A DNA stretch of 64,000 nt from an uncultured Gemmatimonadaceae bacterium (GCA_963761305.1 CAVXGK010000001.1:448001-512000), one strand, 5' to 3'; counted from the first letter of the stretch, positions 21,771 to 36,394 are shown. Notes: a model not told the origin generated them from the sequence alone. Numbers and translations are program-made.

Positions 21771-22217
21771 ATGAGCAACGTCCAAATCGAACAGAAGAGC
21801 TACGAGATGCCCCCGCGAGACGGGATCAGCATTGCGCATTTTCTCACCGTGAAGGACATCGAGCGATCGGCTCGCTACTACGAGACAGTCTTCGGCGCTC
21901 GGATTCTGAGCCTCGGCGACGGCAACGCGCCTGCGTATCTTCAGCTCGCCAATATCTGGATGATTCTGAACGTCGGCGGCGGGCCGACGCCGGATAAGCC
22001 CACGGTAACGCTCGGCGTCCCCGATCCGGATCACATAAGCAGCTTCATGAATTTCCGGGTTGCGGATATTCAAAGCTGTTATGAGTTATGGAAGAGCCGA
22101 GGGGCCGAGTTCATCACGGAACCGATCCCCAAGTACGGCGAGACGCGCTGCTACATCCGCGATCCCGACGGGTATCTGATCGAGGTCGGACAGAGCACCG
22201 ACCTCACGTACGGCTGA
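21771..22217 (+). CDS. VOC/glyoxalase family protein
   Basis: LTVKDIERSARYYETVFG and YIRDPDGYLIEV. Confidence 0.9.
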   Translation: MSNVQIEQKSYEMPPRDGISIAHFLTVKDIERSARYYETVFGARILSLGDGNAPAYLQLANIWMILNVGGGPTPDKPTVTLGVPDPDHISSFMNFRVADIQSCYELWKSRGAEFITEPIPKYGETRCYIRDPDGYLIEVGQSTDLTYG

Positions 22218-22698
22218 CGCCCGAGCCCCCCGACTGGTTCCGCTTCTCGCGGTCGGTGAGCTCGGCCTTGGCGGTGTCCCCGCGGATCTCCGGCACTTCT
22301 CGCCTTGCCGCTCGCCTGGCCACCGCGAGCGAACCAGAGGCGCAGGCCGCGGAAGCAAGGGCGAGCGTGGGGGCAACCGCCAGCACGTCTCCCCAACCAA
22401 GCGACGCGAGTTTGGCGAAGAGGGCCGACAGCAGAAGACCGCCCATGGCACCCCACGCCGCAAAGCGCGGGAGCGACATCTGATCGAATCTTCGACGGCC
22501 CTCGGTCAGCACGAGAACTCCGGAGAATGTGACTCCGGCAATGAGGCCAAGTACACCGAAGATGAGCGGGAATGGGGCGTCGGCATTGAAGCCAAACACC
22601 CAACGCGGCACGAGGCCCACGGCGGACCATGCTGCTGCCCACGTGACACCCATCCCGAATGCCCCGCGAATGCGTCGCAGCCAATCCCGCACCGTCAC
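22204..22698 (-). CDS. Hypothetical membrane protein
   Basis: WLRRIRGAFGMGVTWAAAW followed by about four TM segments; start uncertain (22692 or 22698). Confidence 0.65.
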   Translation of the reverse strand: MTVRDWLRRIRGAFGMGVTWAAAWSAVGLVPRWVFGFNADAPFPLIFGVLGLIAGVTFSGVLVLTEGRRRFDQMSLPRFAAWGAMGGLLLSALFAKLASLGWGDVLAVAPTLALASAACASGSLAVARRAARREVPEIRGDTAKAELTDREKRNQSGGSGVSRT

Positions 22699-22787
22699 CC
22701 CGACCGTAGCGCCCAGTCTCTGCAAGCGCTGGGCGTCAAGTTCTTTGTGACGTAAAGTACCCTCTCAGGCGGTCGGGATTCAAGCGC

Positions 22788-22885
22788 GAACATCGAAACG
22801 CTGAAGCTGGCGTGGGACCTTTATTGATTGCTCGCCGCGCCGGATTTTATTTTGACTCGTGGGGAGCCTCGCTCGGGGTAGCCCG
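22788..22885 (+). mobile_element. Degenerate attC-like site
   Basis: Shares CTG(A/G)AGCTGG and TATTT(T)GACTCG with the element at 23346-23448, and CATCGAA(A)CGCT..AGCTG with 21606-21623. Confidence 0.55.
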
Positions 22886-22897
22886 CAACATCTGGCT

Positions 22898-23335
22898 ATG
22901 TACACCATTCGTCCCGCGACCACCGCCGACGCGGCCTTCCTCTACGAACTGCATGTCTCCGCCATGCGCGCCGTCATTACCGCGACGTGGGGATGGGACG
23001 AGCCCTGGCAACAGCGGCATTTCGCCGCGCGATTCGCGCCGGAGACGATCCAAATCATCCAGGTTGCCGGCGAGTCCGCGGGCATGCTCGAACTCGAGAA
23101 CAGCCAGACGGAGTTCTTCGTTGGCAACTTGAAGCTCCTGCCGGCTGTACAAGGCCGTGGGCTTGGAACTGCCGTATTGCGCGACGTCCTCGCCATCGCG
23201 ACTCAGGAGAACCTGCGTGTATGACTGCAGGTCCTCGAGGCCAACCTACGTGCGCGGCGCTTCTACGAGCGGCTCGGCTTCGTCGTCACAGGCGGCGTCT
23301 CGCCCCACATCCAGATGTCGGCTTCGGTGCGCTGA
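22898..23335 (+). pseudogene. GNAT acetyltransferase with an in-frame TGA at 23222-23224
   Basis: QGRGLGTAVL motif A before the stop; LQVLEANLRARRFYERLGF continues in the same frame after it. Confidence 0.85.
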
Positions 23336-23345
23336 ACAGCGCGGC

Positions 23346-23448
23346 GCCTAAACGAGCTCTGGAGCTGGAAAGCGATCTGCGGTTGTTGCGCGGCCTCAGG
23401 CCGCGCTTCTTATTTGACTCGCTTGCAGCCCAGCTGACGCGTCGTGCC
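23346..23448 (+). mobile_element. attC-like site (best preserved; right core eroded)
   Basis: Begins GCCTAAAC; nested inverted repeats CTGGAGCTG/CAGCCCAG, AAGCGA/TCGCTT and GCGCGGCC/GGCCGCGC; ends GTCGTGC where GTTAGGC is expected. Confidence 0.65.
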
Positions 23449-23474
23449 GGGCCCCGTCTCGACGGAGAAATGAC

Positions 23475-23960
23475 ATGGTCAAGCCGTCAAAGAACACGAT
23501 TTGCCTCTGGTACAATGGCGGCGCCGAGGAAGCGGCGAGGTTTTACGCCAAGACGTTTCCCGATTCGTCCGTTGGCGCCGTGCACCGTGCGCCGGGCGAC
23601 TTTCCGTCGGGAAAGAAAGGGGACGTGTTGACCGTCGAGTTTACCGTGATGGGCATACCGTGTCTCGGACTCAACGGGGGGCCGGCGTTCAAGCACAACG
23701 AAGCGTTCTCGTTCCAGGTCGCAACCGCTGACCAGGCCGAAACGGATCGCTATTGGAACGCGATTGTCGGTAACGGCGGCGAGGAAAGCGCGTGCGGCTG
23801 GTGCAAGGACAGATGGGGCTTGTCGTGGCAGATCACGCCGATCGCGCTGACGAAAGCGATCACCGATCCCAATCCCGCTGCCGCCAAGCGCGCGTTCGAC
23901 GCGATGATGCCGATGAAAAAGATCGACATCGCCGTAATCGAAGCGGCGCGTCGCGGCTGA
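23475..23960 (+). CDS. VOC family protein (PhnB/3-demethylubiquinone-9 3-methyltransferase-like)
   Basis: KNTICLWY...AEEAARFY, LNGGPAFKHNEAFSFQV, CGWCKDRWGLSWQI. Confidence 0.92.
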   Translation: MVKPSKNTICLWYNGGAEEAARFYAKTFPDSSVGAVHRAPGDFPSGKKGDVLTVEFTVMGIPCLGLNGGPAFKHNEAFSFQVATADQAETDRYWNAIVGNGGEESACGWCKDRWGLSWQITPIALTKAITDPNPAAAKRAFDAMMPMKKIDIAVIEAARRG

Positions 23961-24007
23961 ATGTGCGAACGTTGTGCGCTCGCGTCAGGCCGATGCATTT
24001 GGCTTCG

Positions 24008-24421
24008 ATGAGAATCGCAGTCTTAGGTAGCTTCCTCGCTGCCACGGGCGGTGCGTTGGCGTGCACGCGCCACGTTCCGCTCTCCAGTCCCTCGACCAGC
24101 CTGGCGCTTCGGATCGTCGACTCGAGCCGTACCGGCGCGGCGCTTGTCGCGGTACGCCTCCGGTTGATCGGGCCCCTCCCGCTGACGGACACCGTTGCCT
24201 GCAGCGACTCGACCAGACAAGCCGTTCTGTGGTTGGCAAGCGTGCGGCCCGGGCGCTACCAGCTCGTCCTGAACCGGATCGGATACGAAGGTCGGTCGGT
24301 ACTGGTCGACGTGGCCCAACGACAGACCGACACGGTCACCGTCGGCTTGAGGTTTCTCACGCGTGATCTCGAAGAAAGAGTTCGAACGTCGCCGACCAGC
24401 CCTCGCTGCCGCACGGCCTAG
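24008..24421 (+). CDS. Hypothetical lipoprotein with carboxypeptidase-regulatory-like domain
   Basis: ALAC lipobox; IVDSSRTGAAL...VRPGRYQLVLNRIGYE pattern; start 23993 or 24008. Confidence 0.6.
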   Translation: MRIAVLGSFLAATGGALACTRHVPLSSPSTSLALRIVDSSRTGAALVAVRLRLIGPLPLTDTVACSDSTRQAVLWLASVRPGRYQLVLNRIGYEGRSVLVDVAQRQTDTVTVGLRFLTRDLEERVRTSPTSPRCRTA

Positions 24422-24472
24422 CGAACGTTGACGCCGCTAAACGAACGATTGGGGGATGATCCCCGACCTTCA

Positions 24473-25360
24473 ATGCGCACTTCACCGGCGAACGCGGTGC
24501 TCGTCACAGGGGCGACGGGGCGTGTGGGACGCCTCGTCGTCGACGAGCTTCTCCGTGCCGGCGTGCCCGTGCGCGCGCTCACGCGTCGGCCGGAACTGGC
24601 GGCACTTCCCGCCGGCGTCGAAGTCGTAGCGGGAGATCTCACCGTTCCCGCGTCGCTCGATGCCGCCTTGCACGGAGTTGAATCAGCATTCCTCGTCTGG
24701 ACTGCGCCGCTGGCCAGCGCCGCGGCGGCCGTCGCGCGGTTCGCGGCGCATCACTCAGAACAGCCTCGGCGCGTGGTCTATCTCTCGGCGCCACACCAAA
24801 CGCCGCACCCGTTCTTCCAACAACCGAACCCGTTGCGCGATCTTCACGCCGGGGTCGAGCGCTTGCTCGCCGACGCCACGCTCGACACCGTTGTCCTCCG
24901 GCCGGGGATGTTCGCCTCGAACGCGCTTCACTGGTGGGCACCGCAGATTCGGAATGGCGACGTGGTGCGCTGGCCGTACGGTGCCGCCGAGACGGCACCG
25001 GTCGATGAGCGCGACATCGCCGCCGTGGCCGCGCGCGCGCTGCTCGACGTGCGACACGCCGGCGGCGACTACGTGCTGACGGGCCCAGAGTCTCTCAGCC
25101 AGGCGGCACAGGTACATGCGATCGGCGACGCCATCGGCCGACCATTGCGATTCGATGAGCGGACGCCAGACGAGTTCCGTAAAACGGCTGCGGCGTGGCC
25201 GGCCGCCGCGGAGATGCTGCTGTCCGCGTGGCAGGCGACGCTCGCACATCCGGCGTTCGTGACATCCGCGATTCAAGAGATTCTCGAATCACCTCCACGA
25301 ACCTTCTTCCAATGGGCCGCCGACAACGCGGCAGCATTCAGCGGCCCCGCGCGCAGCTAA
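24473..25360 (+). CDS. NmrA-like NAD(P)H-binding protein
   Basis: VLVTGATGRVG, LRPGMFASN, PVDERDIAAVAA, YVLTGPESLS. Confidence 0.9.
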   Translation: MRTSPANAVLVTGATGRVGRLVVDELLRAGVPVRALTRRPELAALPAGVEVVAGDLTVPASLDAALHGVESAFLVWTAPLASAAAAVARFAAHHSEQPRRVVYLSAPHQTPHPFFQQPNPLRDLHAGVERLLADATLDTVVLRPGMFASNALHWWAPQIRNGDVVRWPYGAAETAPVDERDIAAVAARALLDVRHAGGDYVLTGPESLSQAAQVHAIGDAIGRPLRFDERTPDEFRKTAAAWPAAAEMLLSAWQATLAHPAFVTSAIQEILESPPRTFFQWAADNAAAFSGPARS

Positions 25361-25375
25361 CGATCGTTGCAATTC

Positions 25376-25406
25376 GTCTACCGGTCTACCGGTCTACCGG
25401 TCCACC
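25376..25406. repeat. 8-bp tandem repeat (GTCTACCG)x3 plus a variant
   Basis: Directly visible between convergent genes. Confidence 0.85.
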
Positions 25407-25413
25407 ACCGGAC

Positions 25414-26493
25414 TCAGGGCGATCGGTACGTCAACGCCAGAACGGCAAAGCCGGTCGCGGCGTCGCTCATGAAATTCGCCGCGGCGGTCGTAGGATCACG
25501 TTGGCGATTGAGCGACGTCGCGGTCCACTTCCCGGTTGCGCGATCCTGGTGTTCTGTGAGCCACACGAGTGCACGCGCGAGATGCGGCTCGTTGATCGCT
25601 GAGCCGGCGCGTTGCAGCGCGAACGCCGCGACGCCGGTCGCGTACCCGTCGCTGAGCGTATCCAGGGTCGTTCCGTCGGTTCGTTTCCAATCGCCGAGCC
25701 GACCGAGCGCCCACCCACCGTCGGCATTCTGCGTGGCGAGCAGTGAAGCCACGATCGCACGGCGTTCATCAGTCGTGAGCAGGTCGGGCAGCGCCGAGCC
25801 GGCCCAGAGCAGCACCGCGCGATTGAACACGCTCTGCGACGCGACGTCCTGACGGAGAAACGTGCGCAGCGCGCCGACGCGATCTTGAATGTCCGAGCGT
25901 GACGCGTAGCCGCCGGGCTCGGTTCCGACGGCGACCGCGGCCAGTGTCGCGCCGAAGTACGCTGCGTCGTCGGCTTCCCAGGGCTCGAGATGGAAGTTGA
26001 GCCACGCCCACGAACCCGCCGGCTTTCCGCGCCGGAACTGCAACGCCCACAAGTTGTCGAACGCGGTGCGCGCCTCGTCGCTCGGTTTGCCGGCGGCGGC
26101 GTCGCGGGTCGCGAGGACCAGCGCATTCAATACCGCCTCGGTGCCGCGCGACTCGCTCGTCTTCGGCAGGCCGTTGGTCTGATCCGGATAGAAGGGCTCG
26201 ACGTCGCGCCACATCACCACACGCTTCACGACGTCGTCCATGAGTTTGTGTTCGGGGCTCGTCGGCTCGGGTTCGCCGAGCGCAGCCCGCAGCGACGGAC
26301 GGGCGAGCGCGTACGGCAGCGCGGTGTGACACGACACGCAAGCGGTCTGATGATCACGCGCCGCGTTGGGCCACGCCGACCACCACGTCTGGCGCGCGTC
26401 GAGATACGCCGCGGCGCCGCGCATGTCCCATCCCTGCGCAGTCGCGGCGCGAGCGATCACAGTTAGCGCAAGAATGCCGGCGGTAGGTCGCAT
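25414..26493 (-). CDS. Secreted prenyltransferase/squalene-hopene-cyclase-repeat protein with a CxxCH motif
   Basis: Signal peptide, CVSCHT, QW-like repeats (TQNADGGW, EHQDRATGKW), SDGYATG. Confidence 0.75.
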   Translation of the reverse strand: MRPTAGILALTVIARAATAQGWDMRGAAAYLDARQTWWSAWPNAARDHQTACVSCHTALPYALARPSLRAALGEPEPTSPEHKLMDDVVKRVVMWRDVEPFYPDQTNGLPKTSESRGTEAVLNALVLATRDAAAGKPSDEARTAFDNLWALQFRRGKPAGSWAWLNFHLEPWEADDAAYFGATLAAVAVGTEPGGYASRSDIQDRVGALRTFLRQDVASQSVFNRAVLLWAGSALPDLLTTDERRAIVASLLATQNADGGWALGRLGDWKRTDGTTLDTLSDGYATGVAAFALQRAGSAINEPHLARALVWLTEHQDRATGKWTATSLNRQRDPTTAAANFMSDAATGFAVLALTYRSP

Positions 26494-26606
26494 GGCTGCA
26501 TAGCATGCGCGACCCGCGTTCGCTCGACAAGGCCCTCACAACACGAAATTGTGACACGGCCCGCGGCGGGCTTTCTGCGGAGGACTACATTCAGTGATGC
26601 GTCGAC

Positions 26607-27428
26607 GTGAGCCTCGGGGGGGGCGTGTCTGACCACTTGAACCCGTCGCACCAGGAGGCAGGGTCGTCGCGCGCTCGCGCCACCGTTACGCAGCGGATTC
26701 GCGCGTGGCTCGGCCGGCGCCTGGTCGACCGGCTGCGCTGGACCGACGGTCCCGTGCACGTCGCCTACCACCCCGACGTCGCGTACGAGAGAGACGAGCT
26801 CCCGGAGTTCCGCGCGCTGTACGAGTCGTGGATCGCCGGCAACCGGCGGTGCAACGGCGGCGATCTCACGCGCCTGTACGCCTTCATCCTCAACATCAAG
26901 CAATGCCTCGCCGACGGCGTGGCGGGCGACTTCGCCGAGGTCGGCGTGTGGCGCGGCAACTCGGCCGCGACGCTCGCGCACTTCGCCGCGCGACACGACC
27001 GGCATCTCTATCTCTTCGACACGTTCACCGGGTTCGACGCGCGCGATCTTCGCGACATCGACGGCCATCGCGCGGCCGAGTTCGAGAACACGTCGCTCGA
27101 CGCCGTGCGGCGAGTCGTCGGCAACGACGCGCACACCACGTACGTGCCCGGGTATTTTCCTGAGTCGGTGACACAGGCCGCGGAGCGCGCTACCTACGCC
27201 ATCGTGCACGTCGACTGCGATCTGTATGCGCCGACCAAGGCGGCGCTTGATTTCTTCTATCCTCGCATGCCGCGCGGCGGGATCTTCTTTCTCCACGACT
27301 ACGCGTCGGGAGTCTGGCCCGGCGTGACGTGCGCGATCGACGAGTTTCGCGCCGCGACCGGTGAGTCGCTCGTGCTCTTGCCGGACAAATCCGGCACGAC
27401 GATCATCCGCAAGACGCGATCGACATGA
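26607..27428 (+). CDS. TylF/MycF/NovP-type O-methyltransferase
   Basis: GDFAEVGVWRGNS, YLFDTFTGF, VHVDCDLY, LHDY; start uncertain. Confidence 0.88.
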   Translation: MSLGGGVSDHLNPSHQEAGSSRARATVTQRIRAWLGRRLVDRLRWTDGPVHVAYHPDVAYERDELPEFRALYESWIAGNRRCNGGDLTRLYAFILNIKQCLADGVAGDFAEVGVWRGNSAATLAHFAARHDRHLYLFDTFTGFDARDLRDIDGHRAAEFENTSLDAVRRVVGNDAHTTYVPGYFPESVTQAAERATYAIVHVDCDLYAPTKAALDFFYPRMPRGGIFFLHDYASGVWPGVTCAIDEFRAATGESLVLLPDKSGTTIIRKTRST

Positions 27429-27489
27429 CGACACGCCGTCGAACGTGTCACCCAATGAACGCTGATGCGTTGACCGTTCAGGAGTGCAG

Positions 27490-27840
27490 ATGATTTGTCG
27501 CGTGTGGCACGGATGGACCAGTCATGCAAATGCCGACAAATATGAGAGCCTTCTGCGCGAGGAAGTCTTCCGCGGAATCGCCGGCCGCTCGATCGCCGGC
27601 TATCACGGCATCGAGCTGCTTCGGCGAGCGTCGGGCGACGAAGTGGAGTTCGTGACGATGATGTGGTTCGAGTCGCTCGACGCGGTGCGGACGTTTGCGG
27701 GGCCAACGTACGAGCAAGCGGTCGTGCCACCGGCCGCCCGTGCCGTTCTGAGCCGCTTCGATGCACGATCGGCCCACTACGAAGTCAGAGTCCCGCGCGA
27801 AGCGCCGGCACCGATCGCGCGAGAGGCTGCCGGACCGTGA
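27490..27840 (+). CDS. Antibiotic biosynthesis monooxygenase-like (dimeric alpha-beta barrel) protein
   Basis: MICRVWHGWT...ADKYE...WFESLDAVRTFAG..YEQAVVP. Confidence 0.85.
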   Translation: MICRVWHGWTSHANADKYESLLREEVFRGIAGRSIAGYHGIELLRRASGDEVEFVTMMWFESLDAVRTFAGPTYEQAVVPPAARAVLSRFDARSAHYEVRVPREAPAPIAREAAGP

Positions 27841-27873
27841 CCACTATTGGGCCGGCCACTTCGGCGCAGCGCC

Positions 27874-29496
27874 TCAAGAGGTCTGCTCCCGCTGCCGCTC
27901 CGCCTCTTCCAGCCACTGCACCATTTTCTCGTCCTTCGCCGCGTACCGTGCCCACCCCTTCGCGGTGGCGTTCCAACGATAGTCTTTGATGCTCATGTCG
28001 ATGCCGCGGTCGATGAGGAATCGCATCGACTCGTAGTTCCCCGGATTTTCGCCGGTCCCGACCTGTCCCACCAGCTCGTGCAGGATGCTCGCCGGCTCGT
28101 GCGAACTCCACCTGGTGTTGATGTCCGCCCCGTGCGCGAGGAGGAAGTCCGCCACCTCGAACTGGCGGTTGATGACGGACCACGCGAGCGCCGTGTCGAG
28201 AACCGCCTGCACACGCGACGTGCTCCACGCGTAGTCAATTCCCGTGTGTGTGTTGTAGGGGAAGTGATGGTCGAGATCGCCCAGCGCCGGCGAACCTGAT
28301 TTATCGAACCACTGTTTCACGCGCGCGAGGTTCCCCATGGCTGCCGCATGCGGCAGATCGTCCGGCAATGGCCAGATGCGAGTGAGGAGCGGGATGAGGT
28401 GCAGCCTCGCGTAGGTGATCGCGAATTCGATGGCCCCCGACGGCTGCGGCGGCTGGCGTCTGCCAACCGCGGGATCGAGATCGAGAAGGGCCTCGATGAA
28501 TTCGCCGCGATCCCGCATCGTGGCCCGCTCAATGAGTCCCGCTTGAAACGGCGCATTCGCTTCGCCAAGCAGCCACGTCTCGCGTTTCAGCCGGCTGACG
28601 AACGCCGTCAGATCGCCATCCTCGATCGCGCGCATGACCTGGTCCATGAGTAAGGCCTGCCATGGTCCGTTCGGCGCCGCGTGCGCGAAGTCGAGCGTTC
28701 GGTTTCCGATGAAGTACCTGACGAATGCGGGGCGTCCAACGCTTTCGTCGACGTGCGTGCCGAGCTCGGGATCGAGAGCGATGGCCCGGTCGAGGAGGAG
28801 GGACGCGACGGTCTCATGGTGAAATCGGCACGCGCACACGAACGCGTCGTTGACGACGGTCAAATCGCTTCCCTCTCGAGCGAGAGATGCGCGAACCGCG
28901 TCGAGATCACCAAGCGCCGAAAAGAATTTGAGCGTGTGCGGAAGCAAACCCTTCCGGCGAAACAGCTCGAGCATTCCCCTGGCGCGCGATGCGAGAATTC
29001 CGTCGCAGACGACGGGCATCACTACCGCGCCGGCGCCGATCAACAGTTCCGCGCACGCCGCGCGCGTGAACGCCTGTTCTCTGTTCGCGTCGAACGCATC
29101 GCCGTACGCACCCGTGGCCATTCCCAGCAGACCGCCGTCGCCGGCCTGACCGGTCCACGAAAGCAGCGCCGGATGTTCGGCCAGCAGTTGCTTCATGCCC
29201 TCGACATCGTTGTCGTGAATGGCGCGTCGAGCCTGTGCGACCGCCGACTCCAGACCGCTGCCGAGTCGTTCGCTCACCGCGGCCTGGAGATCTTGCCATC
29301 CGGGGTAGCCGTACTCACGCGCGATCACCAGTTGCGCGTTGCGCTGCGTGAGCGGCAGGCCGAGGGTTGGCAGATGCGCCCGGGCACGCGCGAGCGCACC
29401 GGCGTCACCGGCCGCGATGTCTCGCGCGAGTTTCTTCGCTTGTTTCTTGAGGGACTCGAGCGACGGGCGAGCGGGGAGCGACTTCGACGCACTCAT
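27874..29496 (-). CDS. Ankyrin-repeat protein with N-terminal LPARP/AREYG helical domain
   Basis: LPARPSLESLKKQAKKL...AQLVIAREYGYPGW; ankyrin-like FLLAHGADIN and FLIDRGIDM; strong SD AAAGGAGG. Confidence 0.85.
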   Translation of the reverse strand: MSASKSLPARPSLESLKKQAKKLARDIAAGDAGALARARAHLPTLGLPLTQRNAQLVIAREYGYPGWQDLQAAVSERLGSGLESAVAQARRAIHDNDVEGMKQLLAEHPALLSWTGQAGDGGLLGMATGAYGDAFDANREQAFTRAACAELLIGAGAVVMPVVCDGILASRARGMLELFRRKGLLPHTLKFFSALGDLDAVRASLAREGSDLTVVNDAFVCACRFHHETVASLLLDRAIALDPELGTHVDESVGRPAFVRYFIGNRTLDFAHAAPNGPWQALLMDQVMRAIEDGDLTAFVSRLKRETWLLGEANAPFQAGLIERATMRDRGEFIEALLDLDPAVGRRQPPQPSGAIEFAITYARLHLIPLLTRIWPLPDDLPHAAAMGNLARVKQWFDKSGSPALGDLDHHFPYNTHTGIDYAWSTSRVQAVLDTALAWSVINRQFEVADFLLAHGADINTRWSSHEPASILHELVGQVGTGENPGNYESMRFLIDRGIDMSIKDYRWNATAKGWARYAAKDEKMVQWLEEAERQREQTS

Positions 29497-29635
29497 GGCA
29501 GCCTCCTTTCATGAATCGCCTGTGCCCCGCTGAAGCCAGGCTGAAAGAAGGTGCACAACGCACGCGACTTTGAAACCAATCAGGTGGGAATTATTCCCTT
29601 GCCGCGGGTTGGTGGCGCCCTGTCAGCGCGCTGCC
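29497..29635 (-). ncRNA. Candidate structured cis-regulatory 5' leader
   Basis: Anti-SD CCUUCUUUCA can pair with UGAAAGGAGG, enclosing GCCUG/CAGGC and GCUUC/GGGGC; separate GGGAA/UUCCC hairpin at 29586-29598. Confidence 0.6.
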
Positions 29636-29638
29636 CGC

Positions 29639-29667
29639 AGTATCGAACGACGCGGCTTCGATGTCAA
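29639..29667 (-). promoter_or_regulatory. Sigma70-type promoter for the ankyrin gene
   Basis: TTGACA (29667-29662), 17-bp spacer, GATACT (29644-29639). Confidence 0.65.
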
Positions 29668-29817
29668 CGCCGGCCGCGCGCGGCGACCAAGGCTGAGCCG
29701 GCAAGCCGTGCTCGACGCGTTGCGCGGTCTGCGGCTGCGCATCCTAATTGTAGGTCGCTCGCACGTCAGCTCGCGGCGGCAACACCGATCGGTGAACGTC
29801 GAACGGGGGATGACAGA

Positions 29818-30198
29818 GTGCTAACATCCGAAAAGCTTGTCGCGTTTGGCGCCACGACCGACGGAGCTCGGGCCATCGCGTTCTACGGCGACGTGCTCGG
29901 CCTGGCGATCCGGTCCGACGATGAATTCGCCGTGGTCTTCGATGCCGGCGGCACCGAGCTGCGTCTGCAAAAGGTGGAGCGCTTCTCTCCCCATCCCTTC
30001 ACCGCCCTGGGTTGGCAAGTCGCGGACATCGGTCAGGTGGTCAGTCGCCTCGTCGCGGCAGGGGTCGAGCCGGAACGGTACGCATGGATGGAACAGGACG
30101 CGCGCGGGATCTGGTCGGCACCGAGCGGCGCGCGCGTGGCGTGGTTCACGGATCCGGATGGCAACTTGCTCTCCGTCGCGCAATACCCGTCTGGCTAA
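29818..30198 (+). CDS. VOC/glyoxalase family protein
   Basis: AFYGDVLGL, FTALGWQVADI, VAWFTDPDGNLLSV; its stop lies within CTAAC. Confidence 0.9.
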   Translation: MLTSEKLVAFGATTDGARAIAFYGDVLGLAIRSDDEFAVVFDAGGTELRLQKVERFSPHPFTALGWQVADIGQVVSRLVAAGVEPERYAWMEQDARGIWSAPSGARVAWFTDPDGNLLSVAQYPSG

Positions 30199-30257
30199 CG
30201 ACGCTGGACGTCACAGAGACCGATCAATACAGCGCAGTCAAGCGAGGTACATCGCAA

Positions 30258-30644
30258 ATGGCCAGCCTCAAGACGCATCCTCGAGTGACATCGTTCGCTC
30301 CCCAGTTCCTGGTCGATGACCTGGCGCGTTCGATGGACTACTACCGGAAGCTCGGGTTCACGTTCGGCGAGCCATGGGAAGGGTTCTACGCGATTGGAGA
30401 GCTGGACGGCTTGGAACTTCATCTGAAGGAAGCACCGAAGAACGACGCCGACCGCCGCTGGAGTCGCGAACATGAACATCTCGACGCCGCGGGCGGCGTG
30501 GATGGCATCGGCGCCTTCTACGAGCGCTGTGTGGCGAAGGGCGTGGCGATTCTCAGACCGCTCACCGCGACGGAGTGGGGCACCAAGGACTTCTACATCG
30601 AGGATCCGGACGGCTATGTCATCTCGTTCGGCGGCCGTGAGTAG
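30258..30644 (+). CDS. VOC/bleomycin-resistance family protein
   Basis: PQFLVDDLARSMDYYRKLGF, EWGTKDFYIEDPDGYVISFG. Confidence 0.9.
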   Translation: MASLKTHPRVTSFAPQFLVDDLARSMDYYRKLGFTFGEPWEGFYAIGELDGLELHLKEAPKNDADRRWSREHEHLDAAGGVDGIGAFYERCVAKGVAILRPLTATEWGTKDFYIEDPDGYVISFGGRE

Positions 30645-30704
30645 CGTTCGTTAAACCCCGTACTCTTTTTCGCTCCGCGACCTGCCCTGAGGGGCGAACG
30701 AGCG

Positions 30705-32021
30705 TCAGCTCATCCGCACGACTGATTTCGGGGTTGAGAGCGAGCGTTGCCGAACGGCGGGCTGGCGAGTCGCGGCGGCCTGCTGGAGCGACGCCTCCCA
30801 CACGTCCGTCACGCGGTCCCAGGTGTAACGCGAGAGCACTTTGGCGCGCCCTCGCGCGCCGAACTTCGCGCGCTTCGCCGGATCGGCGAGCAGATCGAGA
30901 ATCTTCGCGGCGAGATCCGGCGCGTCGAATGGCTTCGCCGTCCATCCGTCGACGCCGGAATCGATGATGCAGCGCGTCGACGCGATGTCGGCGCCGATCA
31001 CCGGCTTGCCGCACATCCACGCCTCGATCATCACGAGCCCGAAGGCTTCCTCCGACGACGGCAGCGCGAGCAGGTCGCACGCGTCCATGATCGACGGGCC
31101 GTCCGCGTCCGGAAAATCGTCGATCAGCACGACCCTGGACCGTTCGTCCTCGGAGAGGGCCGCCAGCATCGCGGTAACGTTCGCGTCACGATGCGCGCTC
31201 TGGCCGGCCATCAGTAGGACGGCGTTGGGCGCGTGGCGCCACACCGTTGGCATCGCTTCGATCAGTGTGGGCACGCCCTTCATCGAGTCCTGCCGGCCGA
31301 CGAAACCGACGACTGGTCGGTCGCCGATGTCGTAGCGCGCGCGAATGCTCTCTCCATTGCGGCCTTCGAACCGCCCCGGATCAACGCCGGCGCCGGCAAC
31401 GGCAACGTCGCGTCCGCCGCGCGCTTCGACGAAATCGCGCTCAGCCTCCGTGCAAACGATCACACCGTCACAGTCGCCGAGCATGCGCTTGTACGTGTGA
31501 TTGAACGCCCACTCTCGTTCGATGTGGAGAATCGGAACCGCCACGCGCGGCGTGCGACGCAGGAATCGCGGCGGGCACACCCAATACGACAGGGCAAAGA
31601 CCCAATTCACGGCCGTGATCACGTCGACCTCGAGCTTGGCCAGCGGAGGCACCATGCCCAATCCGCTCGGCGGTTGCATCGGCCAAAGATCTCTTCCGAA
31701 GAACCAGGAAGACGTGCGCCATCCGCCGGGGCGATCGAGCCACCAGCGATGCAGACGGTGAAGACGCGAGTTCATCGGCCTCACGCGGACGATGCGCACA
31801 CCGTTCAATGTCTCGGTCGGCGGCAGCCCTGCGCCGCGGGGCGAGAGGAAGTCACGCATCGTCGCGCAATCGAATGTGAGCACGGTCACGTCGTGCCCGC
31901 GCGCCGCCAACCGCTCGGAGACGGATTGCAGCATTCGCTCGGCGCCGCCGACGAGTGGTGCGTACGCCGGAGAGACATGTGCGATGCTCAACGGGCGCGC
32001 TGGAATCGATGGTTTCTGCAT
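30705..32021 (-). CDS. Glycosyltransferase family 4
   Basis: VGGAE, FVGRQDSMKG, EAFGLVMIEAWMCGKPVI. Confidence 0.9.
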   Translation of the reverse strand: MQKPSIPARPLSIAHVSPAYAPLVGGAERMLQSVSERLAARGHDVTVLTFDCATMRDFLSPRGAGLPPTETLNGVRIVRVRPMNSRLHRLHRWWLDRPGGWRTSSWFFGRDLWPMQPPSGLGMVPPLAKLEVDVITAVNWVFALSYWVCPPRFLRRTPRVAVPILHIEREWAFNHTYKRMLGDCDGVIVCTEAERDFVEARGGRDVAVAGAGVDPGRFEGRNGESIRARYDIGDRPVVGFVGRQDSMKGVPTLIEAMPTVWRHAPNAVLLMAGQSAHRDANVTAMLAALSEDERSRVVLIDDFPDADGPSIMDACDLLALPSSEEAFGLVMIEAWMCGKPVIGADIASTRCIIDSGVDGWTAKPFDAPDLAAKILDLLADPAKRAKFGARGRAKVLSRYTWDRVTDVWEASLQQAAATRQPAVRQRSLSTPKSVVRMS

Positions 32022-32032
32022 GGCCCGGCCTC

Positions 32033-32899
32033 CTAGCGAAGTCGCGCGGGACTGCGCCCCGGCCCGGCGAGGATGCCGGCGACTTCACCGGCCGCGTGAC
32101 AGCAGGAGAGCAAGAACACCAGGGGCATGGTGGCGCCAATCGATGGCGTCGAGCGCGCGCCCGAACTGAACACTCGCACGGTATCGCGGAACAGGTTCCA
32201 CGGCAGTTGCCGCCCAGAGATCGGAATGTGGTGCAGGCCGGTGGTCGAGCGACCGTTGTCGAAATGCATGAGCATCGTGCCCCAGAAACCGTGTGATTGC
32301 ACGTGTGTGACCGTCATGCCGTCGTGGACGCAAATGAGCCGATCATTGAACAGCCGCGGGGTGACCTCGAGCTCGATGCGGCCTGCAGGAATCGGTCCCG
32401 GACCTATGGCGCTGCGCCGAAAGGCGAGGTTCGCCGGAGGCGGACATCGCTCGCGCTGCGATTTGTTCATCGGTGGGCAGCAGCTGCCGAACGTGTGCAG
32501 ATAGTTGGCCCGGTCAATCCGATGATTGTTGGATCCGTTCAACACCGGTCCTGTGACGCCCATCGCTGCGGGGTTGAGTCGGAATCCGTGGAGGATCTGT
32601 TGGCACCAGTCGTCGGCGACGATGCAGTGATCCTCGGTGAGGGCAACGATCTCTCCGCGCGCCTGCTCGACCGCGTGTGCGCGAAGCTCGAACACCGAGG
32701 CGCCCGGGAGCCGCACCCACGACAATCGATCCGATGCGGCGACGGTGGCCGAGTCCAAGGCCTCCCCATGCCCGTCGCCGACGATGATCTCGCCACCGAC
32801 GGCAGCCACCTGAGGTCCGAGCACGTTCAGGCAGTTGGCCAGATCCGGCCAGGGATCGGTCGTCGCGAGAATGACGGAGAGCGGAATTCGGTCAGCCAT
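32033..32899 (-). CDS. Glycosyltransferase family 2-like protein
   Basis: LSVILAT, EIIVGD, ARGEIVALTEDHC, ANLAFRR. Confidence 0.8.
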   Translation of the reverse strand: MADRIPLSVILATTDPWPDLANCLNVLGPQVAAVGGEIIVGDGHGEALDSATVAASDRLSWVRLPGASVFELRAHAVEQARGEIVALTEDHCIVADDWCQQILHGFRLNPAAMGVTGPVLNGSNNHRIDRANYLHTFGSCCPPMNKSQRERCPPPANLAFRRSAIGPGPIPAGRIELEVTPRLFNDRLICVHDGMTVTHVQSHGFWGTMLMHFDNGRSTTGLHHIPISGRQLPWNLFRDTVRVFSSGARSTPSIGATMPLVFLLSCCHAAGEVAGILAGPGRSPARLR

Positions 32900-33238
32900 G
32901 GGCCTCCAATAGTAGCCGACCCGGGAAACCGACAACAGTACGGTCCACCATTCGCGTGCGGACGGAGCACAGGCGGTTCGGCCGCGGGATCAGCGAATCT
33001 TAATTTGCATTCGCTCGCCTATCCGAACCGACGAAAGCACGACGTCGAGGCGAGCGCGCATCGGCTCAACGCGCCAAACCCTCCCCGCTTGGGGCGTGAT
33101 GGCGCGCGCTGCGCGGGTAGCACGCTTTGTTGCAGGTGATCCATCTCACCATTTCCGACGACCCCTTCCGCTAACAACGGTCCGTTGAGTGCGTCATACG
33201 GATAGGAAGGCAATTCAGTCACGAACGGAGGAACTGAG

Positions 33239-33559
33239 ATGAGCAAATCGTTACTGGTCCGCGTGACGGCCGGCGTGATCGCGGCGAGCGCATTGGGCGC
33301 CTGCTACGTGAATCCGCGGCCGCGCGTCGGCGTCGAATATGCGCTGCGGCAACCGCCCGTCGAGCGAGTCGAAGTGATCCCGACGTCGCCGGGTGTCGAG
33401 TACGTGTGGGTGACGGGCCATTGGGGTTGGCAACGCAACGACTACGCGTGGATCCCCGGACGCTGGGTGGTCCCGGAGCGTGGCTATCGCGAGTGGGTGG
33501 CCGGCCGGTGGGAACGTGATCGCGCCGGTTGGTTCTACGTCGAAGGGCATTGGCGGTAA
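33239..33559 (+). CDS. YXWGXW/WXXGXW-repeat lipoprotein
   Basis: LGAC lipobox; YVWVTGHWGW, WIPGRW, WVAGRW, YVEGHW. Confidence 0.88.
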   Translation: MSKSLLVRVTAGVIAASALGACYVNPRPRVGVEYALRQPPVERVEVIPTSPGVEYVWVTGHWGWQRNDYAWIPGRWVVPERGYREWVAGRWERDRAGWFYVEGHWR

Positions 33560-33585
33560 GGCGTCGCCGACGCAGGAGCAATCGC

Positions 33586-33650
33586 AGTGAACGAAGCGCA
33601 CCGACGTGCGAGGCCTCAGCGCCCGGCGTCGGTGCGCCTTGTCGTTTAGC
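33586..33650 (+). mobile_element. Short attC-like palindrome (or intergenic hairpin)
   Basis: Perfect 11-bp arms GCGCACCGACG (33596-33606) and CGTCGGTGCGC (33627-33637), flanked by AACGA and TCGTTTAGC, just before a VOC gene. Confidence 0.45.
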
Positions 33651-33659
33651 TTGAGCGGC

Positions 33660-34091
33660 ATGACGAATGAATCATCCGGCGCCACGAGCCATCCGCCGTT
33701 CATCGCCGAGAGCCTGCAAGCGTCGCTGACCGTCGCCGACGTGCGGCGGAGCCGCGACTGGTATCGCGACGTCCTCGGGTTCACGATCGACCGTGAGCAC
33801 GAACGTGACGGCCGATTGTTCGCCGTCTCGCTCAGCGCCGGCACCGTTCGAATTCTCGTAACACAGGACGATGGCGCGAAGGGTGAGCGCGTGAAGGGAC
33901 AAGGCTTCTCGCTCCAATTCACGACGCCGCAAAACATCGACGCGGTTGCCGACCACGCCAAACGCGCCGGCGCCACGTTCGACACCGAACCCATGGACGC
34001 TTTCGGCGCCCGCGTCTTCCGCCTGCGCGACCCGGATGGGTTCCGCCTGGTGATCTCGTCGCCGCGCGACGCCACCCCTCGCCGGGGTTAG
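33660..34091 (+). CDS. VOC/glyoxalase family protein
   Basis: LTVADVRRSRDWYRDVLGF, FGARVFRLRDPDGFRLVI. Confidence 0.9.
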   Translation: MTNESSGATSHPPFIAESLQASLTVADVRRSRDWYRDVLGFTIDREHERDGRLFAVSLSAGTVRILVTQDDGAKGERVKGQGFSLQFTTPQNIDAVADHAKRAGATFDTEPMDAFGARVFRLRDPDGFRLVISSPRDATPRRG

Positions 34092-34096
34092 CTGAA

Positions 34097-34576
34097 TTGC
34101 TGCCAGCCGTCCAACTACTCGACACGATGGCCGAGCAGATGTGGACCCTGCTGCAGCGGAACCTCACGGGCATCACGGAGGCGGAAGCCGATTGGCGCCC
34201 GCATCCGGCCGCGAATCCCGTGCGCTGGATGGTCGGCCACCTCGCGTGGTTCGAGGAGTGGGCGCACGACGCCTTGCACCGCGATGGTCGCTACCTCGTC
34301 GATCGCGATCCGACCGCCTACCTCGACGGAACGATCCCGGAGTTGCTCGCCCGGTTCAGCGCCGCGCGAGCGCGGTACCGCGCGTGCGTCGCCGAGCTCG
34401 ATCAGAATGCCCTCGATGCAACGCTGAGCTACCTCGGCCGCTACGACGTCTCGGGTCTCGATCTCCTCAAGACGCACGCGCTCCACGTGGCCGGCCACCG
34501 ATTTCAGGTGCGATACGTTCGCGGGACCTACAGCCGCGCGCACGGCACGTCCAAGACGGACTTTGATCCGTGGTAG
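34097..34576 (+). CDS. DinB family protein
   Basis: WRPHPAANPVRWMVGHLAWFE and C-terminal HALHVAGHRFQ. Confidence 0.8.
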   Translation: MLPAVQLLDTMAEQMWTLLQRNLTGITEAEADWRPHPAANPVRWMVGHLAWFEEWAHDALHRDGRYLVDRDPTAYLDGTIPELLARFSAARARYRACVAELDQNALDATLSYLGRYDVSGLDLLKTHALHVAGHRFQVRYVRGTYSRAHGTSKTDFDPW

Positions 34577-34625
34577 ACGCGACCGGCGCGTGACAACGGT
34601 GCGTCGCCCGCGGTAACGTTGTGCC

Positions 34626-35072
34626 GTGCGAAAGACGACGCTTCTCTTCGGCCTGCTCGGCGGCGCGCTCATCGCGCTGCTCAAGCTCATCGAGTATCGA
34701 TATCTGGTCGTCGAACACTCGGTCGAGATCTACGGCGGCCTTGTGGCGCTCGTCTTCTCGATACTCGGTATTTGGCTCGGTCTTCGGTTGACTCGCGGTC
34801 GGCCGGCCCCGGGTCCTCCGGCCCCCGTCCAACCGGCACGTGGACCGTTTGTCGTCGATCGGGCACGGCTCGACGCGTTGGGGATCACGCCGCGCGAGCA
34901 CGAGATCCTCGAGCTCATCGCCGCGGGCCTCAGCAACCGCGAGATCGCCGAAAAGCTGTTTGTGAGCGAGAACACCGTGAAGACGCACTCGAGCCGACTG
35001 TTCGACAAGCTGAACGCGAAGCGGCGGACGCAGGCCGTGCAGCTCGCCAAAGAGGCCGGATTGATCGCCTGA
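34626..35072 (+). CDS. Membrane-anchored LuxR-type HTH transcription factor
   Basis: Two N-terminal TM helices then ITPREHEILELIAAGLSNREIAEKLFVSENTVKTH; no receiver domain. Confidence 0.9.
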   Translation: MRKTTLLFGLLGGALIALLKLIEYRYLVVEHSVEIYGGLVALVFSILGIWLGLRLTRGRPAPGPPAPVQPARGPFVVDRARLDALGITPREHEILELIAAGLSNREIAEKLFVSENTVKTHSSRLFDKLNAKRRTQAVQLAKEAGLIA

Positions 35073-35118
35073 AAGGATGATTTTGGTGGTTCTGCGCGAA
35101 AATCACCCTTTCGGGTGA
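35065..35118. promoter_or_regulatory. Two related dyads, candidate LuxR-type operators
   Basis: TCGCCT-GAAA-GGATGA (35065-35080) and TCACCC-TTTC-GGGTGA (35103-35118). Confidence 0.55.
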
Positions 35119-35196
35119 CGCGCGAAACGGGCCTTGGACCTAGGCTGTGGCGCGATTCCAAATCGACCCTCTATCCGCGCCGGGAGCGCACGACCA

Positions 35197-35748
35197 ATGC
35201 AGAAGACCGTCTGGACCTTTGGGCTGATCTCTGGAGCAATCATCTCGCTGTTGATGCTCCTCGTTCTCCCGTTCCACGACGCCATCGGGTACGACCGGAG
35301 CTTAGTCCTCGGCTACACGACGATGGTGCTGGCGTTCCTGCTCATCTACTTCGGGATCCGGTCGTACCGCGACAACGTCGCCAACGGGTCGATCGGATTC
35401 GGACGCGCCCTGGCCGTCGGAACGCTCATCGCCGTGATCTCGAGCGTCTGCTATACCGCGACCTGGGAACTGATCTACCCGCGAATCGCGACGGATTTCA
35501 CGGCCAAGTATCAGGCCCACGAGATCAGCAAAGCGAAGGCGAGCGGTGCGAGCCAGGCAGAGATCGACCAACGCGCCGCCGACCTGAAGCGATTCTCCGA
35601 GTTGTACAAGAACCCCGTCGTGAACGCGGCCCTCACGTTCATCGAGCCGCTGCCCGTGGGTCTCGTGATCGCGCTGGTCTCGGCCGGCGTGCTGAGGCGC
35701 CGACGGCCGGCTAGTTCGTCGCAGCCCGAAATCGCCGCCGCCGGCTAA
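35197..35748 (+). CDS. DUF4199-like membrane protein
   Basis: KTVWTFGLISG, GYTTMVLAFLLIYFGIRSYRDN..NGSIGFGRA, TFIEPLPVGL. Confidence 0.82.
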   Translation: MQKTVWTFGLISGAIISLLMLLVLPFHDAIGYDRSLVLGYTTMVLAFLLIYFGIRSYRDNVANGSIGFGRALAVGTLIAVISSVCYTATWELIYPRIATDFTAKYQAHEISKAKASGASQAEIDQRAADLKRFSELYKNPVVNAALTFIEPLPVGLVIALVSAGVLRRRRPASSSQPEIAAAG

Positions 35749-35881
35749 GCATCTCGTCCGCGGTCATTCTATTTTCGCCCCGGCGGGCGGCACATTAACG
35801 GTCATGCGACCGCCGCCGGGCCGCCTTCGACCGCAGTTCACGTATATCGTCTGACTCCATTCATCTACTCGTCATCTACTC

Positions 35882-36394
35882 GTGCAGATCGACAACGAAC
35901 CCCGCGTGCCGTCTCGATTCGGCGATCGCTACGCGAAAGAATTCCTCGTCGGCTGGCGAGCCATGGACTTCAACGGTCACATGGGAAATACGGCATACCT
36001 GGATCTCGCCGCCGACGTTCGTCTGGCGTTTCTCGCCGACCATGGATGTCCGGTGACCGAACTGAAGGGGCTGGCGATCGGCCCGGTGATCCGCAAGGAA
36101 GAGCTCGAGTACTTCCGCGAGGTCGGGCTCCATGAGACCGTAACCGTCACCTACGCGGCTCTGGCGATGACGCCCGACGGCGCGCGGTTCGTCGTCGAGA
36201 ACGAGGTCTGGTCGGAGCGCGGCGAACGCGCGGCGACGATTCGATCGACCGGCGGCTGGCTGGACCTGCGCACCCGAAAGCTTATCGCGCCGCCGCCGCT
36301 GTTGGTCGCCGCCCTTTCCCAGTTGCCGCGCGCGCCGGGCTTCGTCGAGCTACCGTTGCCGCGCAAGAAGGACGGCGACGAATCGAGTCCGTAA
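35882..36394 (+). CDS. Acyl-CoA thioesterase (hotdog fold)
   Basis: WRAMDFNGHMGNTAYLD, YFREV, GGWLDLRTRKL. Confidence 0.85.
   Translation: MQIDNEPRVPSRFGDRYAKEFLVGWRAMDFNGHMGNTAYLDLAADVRLAFLADHGCPVTELKGLAIGPVIRKEELEYFREVGLHETVTVTYAALAMTPDGARFVVENEVWSERGERAATIRSTGGWLDLRTRKLIAPPPLLVAALSQLPRAPGFVELPLPRKKDGDESSP

Follow-up and report, generated by a model that had tools for sequence, protein, structure and literature searches.

A conserved leader RNA with two predicted pseudoknots over the ribosome binding site precedes genes that share a small basic N-terminal domain

The leader of an ankyrin-repeat gene from an uncultured Gemmatimonadaceae bacterium belongs to a conserved RNA family that, from comparison of homologous sequences, is predicted to form a double pseudoknot hiding the Shine-Dalgarno (SD) sequence; its seven helices are supported by covariation. 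The only protein feature common to the downstream genes is a small N-terminal domain. On the sequence comparisons described here, we put the chances at about even that this small basic domain binds its own leader and represses its own translation, and that occupancy of the C-terminal part of the protein would release the RNA. The leader and gene lie on the minus strand of a 64,000-nucleotide stretch of DNA (the window), and all the elements named in a previous sequence-only reading were found in place. The features are as follows.

29639..29667, minus strand: sigma-70-type promoter, TTGACA (29667-29662), 17 nt, GATACT (29644-29639); predicted +1 near A29632.
29497..29632, minus strand: whole leader RNA, long form, about 136 nt; CM R1 gives 92 bits over 29494-29638, with the window copy in the CM training set.
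29615..29629, minus strand: hairpin P1, GCGC 29629-29626 with GCGC 29618-29615; 95% of cells paired (82 sequences), little double-sided change.
29581..29622, minus strand: pseudoknot PK1, which closes the 5' core by pairing CAGG 29622-29619 in the P1 loop with CCUG 29584-29581; two of its pairs rank first and third in de novo covariation, z 23 and 19.
29602..29612, minus strand: short hairpin P1b, CC 29612-29611 with GG 29603-29602, presenting a 7-nt loop; C25-G35 pair, z 10, 100% canonical.
29586..29600, minus strand: conserved AA 29600-29599 and hairpin P2 (GGGAA 29598-29594 with UUCCC 29590-29586), then bulged A29585; A42-U48 pair, z 21.
29526..29608, minus strand: kissing pseudoknot PK2, CCCGC 29608-29604 (P1b loop) with GCGGG 29530-29526 (P4 loop); 99% of cells paired.
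29552..29580, minus strand: variable linker without conserved fold; mean z -0.07 (82 linkers).
29502..29551, minus strand: P3, anti-SD CCUUCUUUCA 29551-29542 with UGAAAGGAGG 29511-29502, holding the SD; 87% of cells paired, double-sided change at 6 of 10 pairs.
29518..29541, minus strand: P4, GCCUG 29541-29537 with CAGGC 29522-29518, whose loop bears the kissing strand; U99-A116 pair, z 11; 96% paired.
27874..29496, minus strand: gene for a 540-aa protein with the small N-terminal domain and helical and ankyrin repeats (ORF, Pfam).
29266..29478, minus strand: four-helix domain at the N-terminus (about residues 7-77; AlphaFold2 model), its basic patch formed by K17, K18, K21, and R25.
27985..28197, minus strand: ankyrin repeats, residues 434-504 (Pfam).

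The near-consensus promoter that had been read from the sequence is present at 29667-29639. Taken alone, the TTGACA-17-GATACT pattern is weak evidence (1 found versus 0.4 expected). A -35-like hexamer at the matching position occurred in 50 of 87 homologues versus 6 of 87 in a control window, and in 45 of the 87 it lay 44 to 48 bases 5' of the motif, as it does in the window copy (47 bases). This shared position indicates that the RNA fold begins at about +1. Conservation among relatives runs from just 3' of the -10 box to the start codon. The neighborhood of the gene (window 21771-36394) holds many small accessory genes, including a divergent VOC gene at 29815-30198, an ABM-like gene at 27484-27840, and a TylF-type methyltransferase gene at 26607-27428. 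Others there look like additional VOC, GNAT, and NmrA-like genes. Distant homologues do not share this setting. In the window protein, Pfam reported a sub-threshold Glyoxalase_8 match at residues 10-78 beside the ankyrin matches. Identity as a Legionella ankyrin effector was rejected, since the weak NCBIfam matches fell far under the cut-off and were due to the ankyrin repeats only.

Covariation was assessed in 91 leaders of less than 85% identity (108 before thinning), aligned by sequence only, with a tree-free G-test with APC. The five strongest covarying column pairs were Watson-Crick (79 to 100% canonical) and define PK1 (A29621-U29582 and C29622-G29581), P2, P4, and P1b; a PK2 pair ranked eighth. 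Across 82 leaders, 91.8% of the cells of the seven-helix structure were paired and 17 of its 36 pairs showed double-sided change, versus 42 to 53% paired when the structure was slid by 1 to 3 columns. Several columns were fixed by the search pattern, so that invariance at those columns carries no meaning. The variable PK1 pair was A-U in 43 of the 82, G-C in 34, C-G in 2, and G-U in 2. For PK2, 21 long leaders were selected via the protein, and the model that aligned them did not contain this helix. Each of the 21 showed 6 to 8 bp of loop-loop complementarity with compensatory changes (for example, GUCCAU/AUGGAC and GACCCGC/GCGGGUC), and the G-C pairs of PK1 and P2 also changed in step. Folding of the window leader as a single sequence was only modestly better than that of shuffles (z -1.65; 12 of 200 shuffles were as good), so the evidence for structure is comparative.

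The sequence-only reading had proposed most of these helices. The 10-bp pairing of CCUUCUUUCA with UGAAAGGAGG is P3 and is supported by covariation, and the upstream GGGAA/UUCCC and GCGC/GCGC hairpins are P2 and P1. The nested stem stood in its outer part, GCCUG/CAGGC (P4), while the inner GCUUC/GGGGC stem was rejected because it is not kept in the 82 homologues; the GCGGG strand of that inner stem pairs long-range with CCCGC at 29608-29604 instead. Both pseudoknots had been missed. Among other candidates, a GG/CC extension of P2 gave way to PK1 on de novo covariation, a conserved hairpin in the linker was rejected on the mean z of the 82 linkers, and an anti-anti-SD formed by the conserved AAGGG was rejected at 7 of 90. 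A terminator-like call at 29551-29563 (a hairpin and then the U-rich anti-SD) was at chance level, and the linker fold there is not conserved.

Two of the checks suggested along with those proposals were a comparison with Rfam and a search for covariation upstream of homologues. The second gave the seven covarying helices, and the first gave no match to a known family: Rfam 15 produced no match at the gathering threshold anywhere in the window, only two chance lncRNA matches (E 0.48 and 4.3) at E up to 10 on 29400-29850, and, for 20 homologous loci, no match with an E of 1 or less. The surmise of an undescribed pair of RNA motif and protein domain is thus upheld by covariation, by the coupling described next, and by the lack of an Rfam match, with the qualification that Rfam already lists a distant cousin, COG3860 RNA.

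Coupling of the RNA to the N-terminal domain was evident within the genome itself. The N-terminal 80 residues of the window protein found three further genes, all with a recognizable leader, and the domains of these paralogs are only 34 to 38% identical to that of the window. Searches with CM R1 and domain profile A4 gave four RNA matches and four domain genes, one to one. Starting from the RNA, we scanned a species-level genome set with a 20-base pattern taken from the 5' core. Four of the 64 parts yielded 120 loci, with an estimate of about 2300 stretches for the whole set; the loci come from Acidobacteriota, Actinomycetota, Gemmatimonadota, alpha-, beta-, and gammaproteobacteria, and others, and culturable carriers include Rhizobium, Ensifer, and Streptomyces. 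The domain begins the next ORF in 108 of the 120 hits. Five of the 12 exceptions score 20 CM bits or less or give no CM score and are chance-like, three end less than 220 bases from the motif, one has a 21-codon domain start followed by a stop, and the last three are partial leaders with no domain gene.

Each set of genomes was then searched with both the profile and the CM, and the matches were paired by eye from their coordinates. In 101 genomes of the phylum, the RNA lies directly upstream at 47 of 52 domain loci, a count that leaves out four internal domain copies, and 47 of 50 RNA matches precede the domain. Of the five loci without it, two are weak and apparently spurious matches of about 19 bits, one has an internally deleted leader, one lies within an operon, and one has lost the basic residues of the domain. 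In 101 genomes of the actinomycete class of Streptomyces, the RNA was present at 9 of 10 domain loci, two internal copies and two weak, stop-containing matches having been dropped; the tenth locus (L326) keeps the basic patch and has no leader match, and L175 has no leader match either. One strong actinomycete RNA match, a full leader (L331:1374-1516), precedes a broken gene without the domain. For the Rhizobium order (121 genomes, two internal copies dropped), 21 of 28 domain loci had a CM match, and all 21 RNA matches adjoin the domain. Because kin are not independent, these counts from genome samples are descriptions and not statistics. No intact domain-less gene was found behind the RNA, the exceptions inspected being remnants or broken genes. 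Decayed cases include a 5' half-leader directly next to a pilC-like reading frame (L158:375-452), an orphan half-leader (L157:319-439), and a leader with an internal deletion (L154). Among 121 viral pattern hits, no domain match was found and the 97 scored by CM gave 21 bits or less; among plasmids, there was one record only. Upstream neighbors recur only in close Rhizobiaceae and in one three-locus cluster, and no recurring neighbor family was found beyond close relatives. This is a complex, widespread RNA, absent from Rfam, for which a specific candidate partner, about 75 residues long, can be named.

The AlphaFold2 model of the domain (pLDDT 83.6) has helices at residues 13-28, 32-41, 51-61, and 67-79. 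Positions 17 and 21, in helix 1, are K/R in 69 of 69 thinned N-terminal copies, versus 1 of 20 (position 17) and 3 of 20 (position 21) thinned internal copies. The internal copies keep the structural A20, A59, G63, and W67 and turn acidic, with E at position 17 in 15 of 20 and D/E at position 25 in 15 of 20; most belong to one LRR subfamily, so that they are not independent. Such internal acidic copies might mask the basic copy. A paralog (L033, G000:C2:178127 onward) lies in a frame of 1221 codons that encodes ankyrin and LRR parts together with an internal acidic domain copy. Foldseek with the domain model gave no match at E up to 0.001, the best VIA-align Z was 4.1, a PDB sequence search with the domain gave no credible match, and ESM Atlas matches were only unnamed clusters below 0.9. 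Clear structural matches are absent, yet novelty of the fold does not follow.

The partners of the domain were surveyed in 70 full-length proteins (long-flank loci, ORFs of more than 90 aa): ankyrin in 57, two of them with TPR; LRR in 4; VOC in 1; Clp_N in 1; and no Pfam match in 7. A word-based protein search scored 3168 longer proteins among 8000 candidates, and DUF1835 and ankyrin-plus-VOC fusions also carry the domain. The diversity of partners is thus real but skewed, since 57 of 70 are ankyrin. The earlier suggestion of a module fused to varied effectors behind similar leaders was borne out by these ankyrin, LRR, VOC, DUF1835, and Clp_N fusions and by the near one-to-one coupling.

A shorter leader, of about 75 nt, precedes genes of domain-plus-VOC proteins of about 210 aa (L162:602-686, L163, L183, L189, L191, and L197-L316). 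It retains PK1, P1b, the purine pair, and P2, and it is without PK2, P3, and P4. In a metagenome scan the domain follows it in 115 of 120 loci; four of the five exceptions have a truncated or frame-shifted domain-like ORF, and one is at a contig edge. Among 59 thinned copies, the first variable PK1 pair was A-U 44 times and G-C 15 times. An SD-like word was present in only 18 of the 59, and the bases immediately 5' of the AUG pair with the G-rich 5' strand. This pairing was stronger than in shuffled sequences (-11.7 versus -6.9 kcal/mol in 47 copies and -8.9 versus -4.4 kcal/mol in 12), and native pairing was favored over swapped pairing in 40 of 47 and 8 of 12. By these predictions, one 5' core serves two platforms, both over the translation start. 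Since the short form keeps the core, exchanges the SD platform, and still precedes the domain, the 5' core appears to be the recognized part.

A working mechanism can be outlined from these results. Comparison of the homologues places the start of the RNA at the promoter-predicted +1 and shows a compact 5' core (P1, PK1, P1b, and P2) joined by the kissing loop to the SD-holding hairpin. The K/R patch of helix 1 would contact the 5' core. When bound, the core would stay folded, long-range pairing would be limited to the kiss, and the SD helix would be locked; when unbound, the 5' strand would invade P4 and the SD helix would loosen. The interchangeable C-terminal part (ankyrin, LRR, TPR, VOC, DUF1835, or Clp_N) would be the working or sensing part, and its occupancy would cause the protein to leave the RNA, so that more protein is made. 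In a nested-only model, the ligand-free cost of opening the SD had a median of 9.2 kcal/mol over 91 leaders and was 13.4 kcal/mol in the window; the native 5' core lowered this cost more than shuffled cores did in only 50 of 91, and the invading ON helix occurred in only 45 of 90 ensembles.

An SD that is costly to open without ligand, together with a native core that behaves much like shuffled cores, means that the protein could instead be an activator. The RNA and domain would then be the same pair with the opposite sign: the leader would be OFF by default, and the domain, or its ligand-loaded form, would open the SD helix in positive feedback. The 9- to 10-bp SD helix with its high median opening cost is in keeping with this, as are the COG3860 RNA, where a long-range 6-mer competes with a local hairpin within the SD-hiding arm, and the short form, where pairing of the start-proximal strand can reach the G pair that PK1 uses. 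However, the seven helices of the long form are mutually compatible and covary together, so that it is the fully folded state that hides the SD, and self-binding leaders described so far are mostly repressive. We regard activation as unlikely, though it deserves serious consideration.

The leader might also act without any protein, as a riboswitch that responds to an ion or small molecule; the domain would then be a co-inherited sensing or oligomerization module. Two pseudoknots, conserved unpaired purines, an SD-sequestering platform, and a start at +1 would suit such an RNA, and one core with two platforms is typical of aptamers; a covarying aptamer-like core with an expression platform is indeed present in the family. 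Against this, the downstream genes share the domain and not a pathway or transporter class, no metabolic or transport theme being found among the 70 proteins and no recurring neighbors. In addition, few unpaired positions of the leader are conserved, and intact domain-less genes behind the RNA were not found. This comparative evidence favors autoregulation by the domain over a small-molecule riboswitch, which we judge improbable while granting it a real, if small, chance.

It is a slim prospect that the RNA is itself a functional partner, with leader and protein forming a ribonucleoprotein (a sensor or defense system) in which the SD helix only keeps expression low. Repeat partners such as ankyrin, LRR, and TPR are typical of sensors, and tandem basic and acidic domain copies occur in LRR proteins. 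A terminator or processing signal that would free the RNA was not found, the sole weak candidate being the chance-level call at 29563-29551; the 121 viral pattern hits included no true copies, with one plasmid record only, and conserved partner genes are absent. Finally, it is very improbable that promoter, leader, and first domain merely move as one 5' cassette in gene fusion without physical contact, as their adjacency, the varying C-terminal part, and some domain genes without a leader might suggest, since fusion breaks at the start codon should leave intact leader-only genes and none were found, N-terminal copies alone have an invariant basic patch, and sister domains keep sister leaders across large distances.

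The four paralogous RNA-domain pairs in one genome permit a comparison of specificity, and cognate pairs could act as compact orthogonal translational switches.

Several known systems resemble the window RNA. Translational riboswitches with a pseudoknot or kissing loop at the ribosome binding site include the cobalamin, SAM-II, and preQ1-II classes. Like these, the window family couples a folded core to SD occlusion through long-range loop pairing; unlike them, it has no Rfam match or metabolic theme downstream. Autoregulatory protein-binding leaders (for example, that of S15) likewise are structured 5' UTRs over the ribosome binding site that are tied to one protein family. In contrast to these, the partner here is an uncharacterized four-helix domain placed before unrelated C-terminal domains, with several paralogs per genome, and the window leader had no sequence match to any autoregulatory-leader family in Rfam. 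A "protein binding candidate" class of leaders is defined in the available text of PMC11109978, and in that of PMC2864571 structured 5' UTRs (the msiK and Chlorobi-RRM motifs) are proposed to bind their own gene products. No description of this RNA or domain was found in the accessible portions of these two papers or of PMC1564403, and the motif was not found in the main text of PMC5737381 or in PMC8632094 including one supplementary file. The full-text literature as far as available likewise held no description of the RNA or domain; survey supplements and the COMPASS database may hold the motif. COMPASS nominates 20,149 motif clusters according to its text (bioRxiv 10.64898/2026.10.21.760802), among them cluster #630,527, an unnamed leader motif before glyoxalase, flavin monooxygenase, and NmrA-like genes. 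Judged by this text description, the cluster may be the same motif, above all its short form; unlike in the window family, ankyrin is not mentioned in the portion of the text that describes it.

The domain itself is homologous to the N-terminal 58 positions of PF20066 (Glyoxalase_8), with a hhalign probability of 96.7% (E 3.4e-10). It differs in an extra helix and in its sub-cut-off score: residues 1-80 of the window protein reach 22.6 bits, below the cut-off of 23.7, the whole protein 16.4 bits, and PF20066 matches weakly in 16 of 78 domain members. The name Glyoxalase_8 implies no glyoxalase activity for the N-terminal part. Canonical PF20066 genes have a different conserved leader without an Rfam match (L455-L470, L186, and L187; the 170 nt upstream of the start), with a covarying GCUCGC/GCGAGC pairing; this 6-mer pairing was present in 11 of the 12 copies that could be parsed (of 18) versus 2 of 58 swaps. 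A more distant relative (L185, 190 nt upstream of 1650, minus strand) joins the domain to a DnaB_C/KaiC-like ATPase, and its GC-rich leader has pyrimidine tracts complementary to its SD region.

The closest comparison is with COG3860 RNA (RF02940, cis-regulatory), to which, to our knowledge, no function has been assigned. Like the window RNA, it is the 5' leader of genes that start with a Glyoxalase_8-like helical domain. RF02940 had no match in the window at its gathering threshold of 42.5 bits and none at E up to 10 on 29400-29850, and true copies of COG3860 RNA score 71 bits with the same library. The genes behind COG3860 RNA have a PF20066-like N-terminus followed by DUF2087 (E about 1e-21), unlike the window gene, whose protein matches only ankyrin and, weakly, Glyoxalase_8; 2 of 3 scanned pass the PF20066 cut-off, and two weak PF20066 matches lie behind that RNA. 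Their N-terminus matched the PF20066 set with a profile probability of 95.7% and the window family directly with only 16.9% (4 of 8 ORFs parsed), so that the two domains are linked only through PF20066. COG3860 RNA runs about 90 to 115 nt past its 54-nt Rfam model to the start codon (L473-L479 and L481, 1500-1700); this extension contains an SD-hiding arm and a covarying 6-mer to the core, and the P1 loop can pair with CCUGC at the 3' end of the model.

In structure the two RNAs agree in outline. In both, the loop of the first hairpin can pair 3' of a GGG/CCC-type hairpin (in COG3860 RNA, by complementarity only), and a long-range 6-mer reaches into the SD-hiding arm, a combination that was worked out as a criterion in this analysis and is absent from the Rfam model. 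The COG3860 core 6-mer had its exact complement in that arm in 8 of 8 above-cut-off copies versus 0 of 46 swaps, and it follows the outline of the GUCCGC/GCGGAC pairing in the window family; its partner lies in a local hairpin strand in most copies, whereas the partner in the window lies in a loop. The window RNA is thus not a member of RF02940 and is likely a structural cousin, which offers a hypothesis for the orphan COG3860 motif and for the misleadingly named Glyoxalase_8 domain. In its widest form, which we put forward tentatively and consider rather doubtful, the Glyoxalase_8-like domain would be an RNA-binding module not yet recognized as such, diversified together with four or more cognate leaders (long, short, PF20066-type, and COG3860), and promoter, leader, and domain would make up a portable one-component regulator at the RNA level, through which the fused part sets its own translation and its occupancy releases the RNA.
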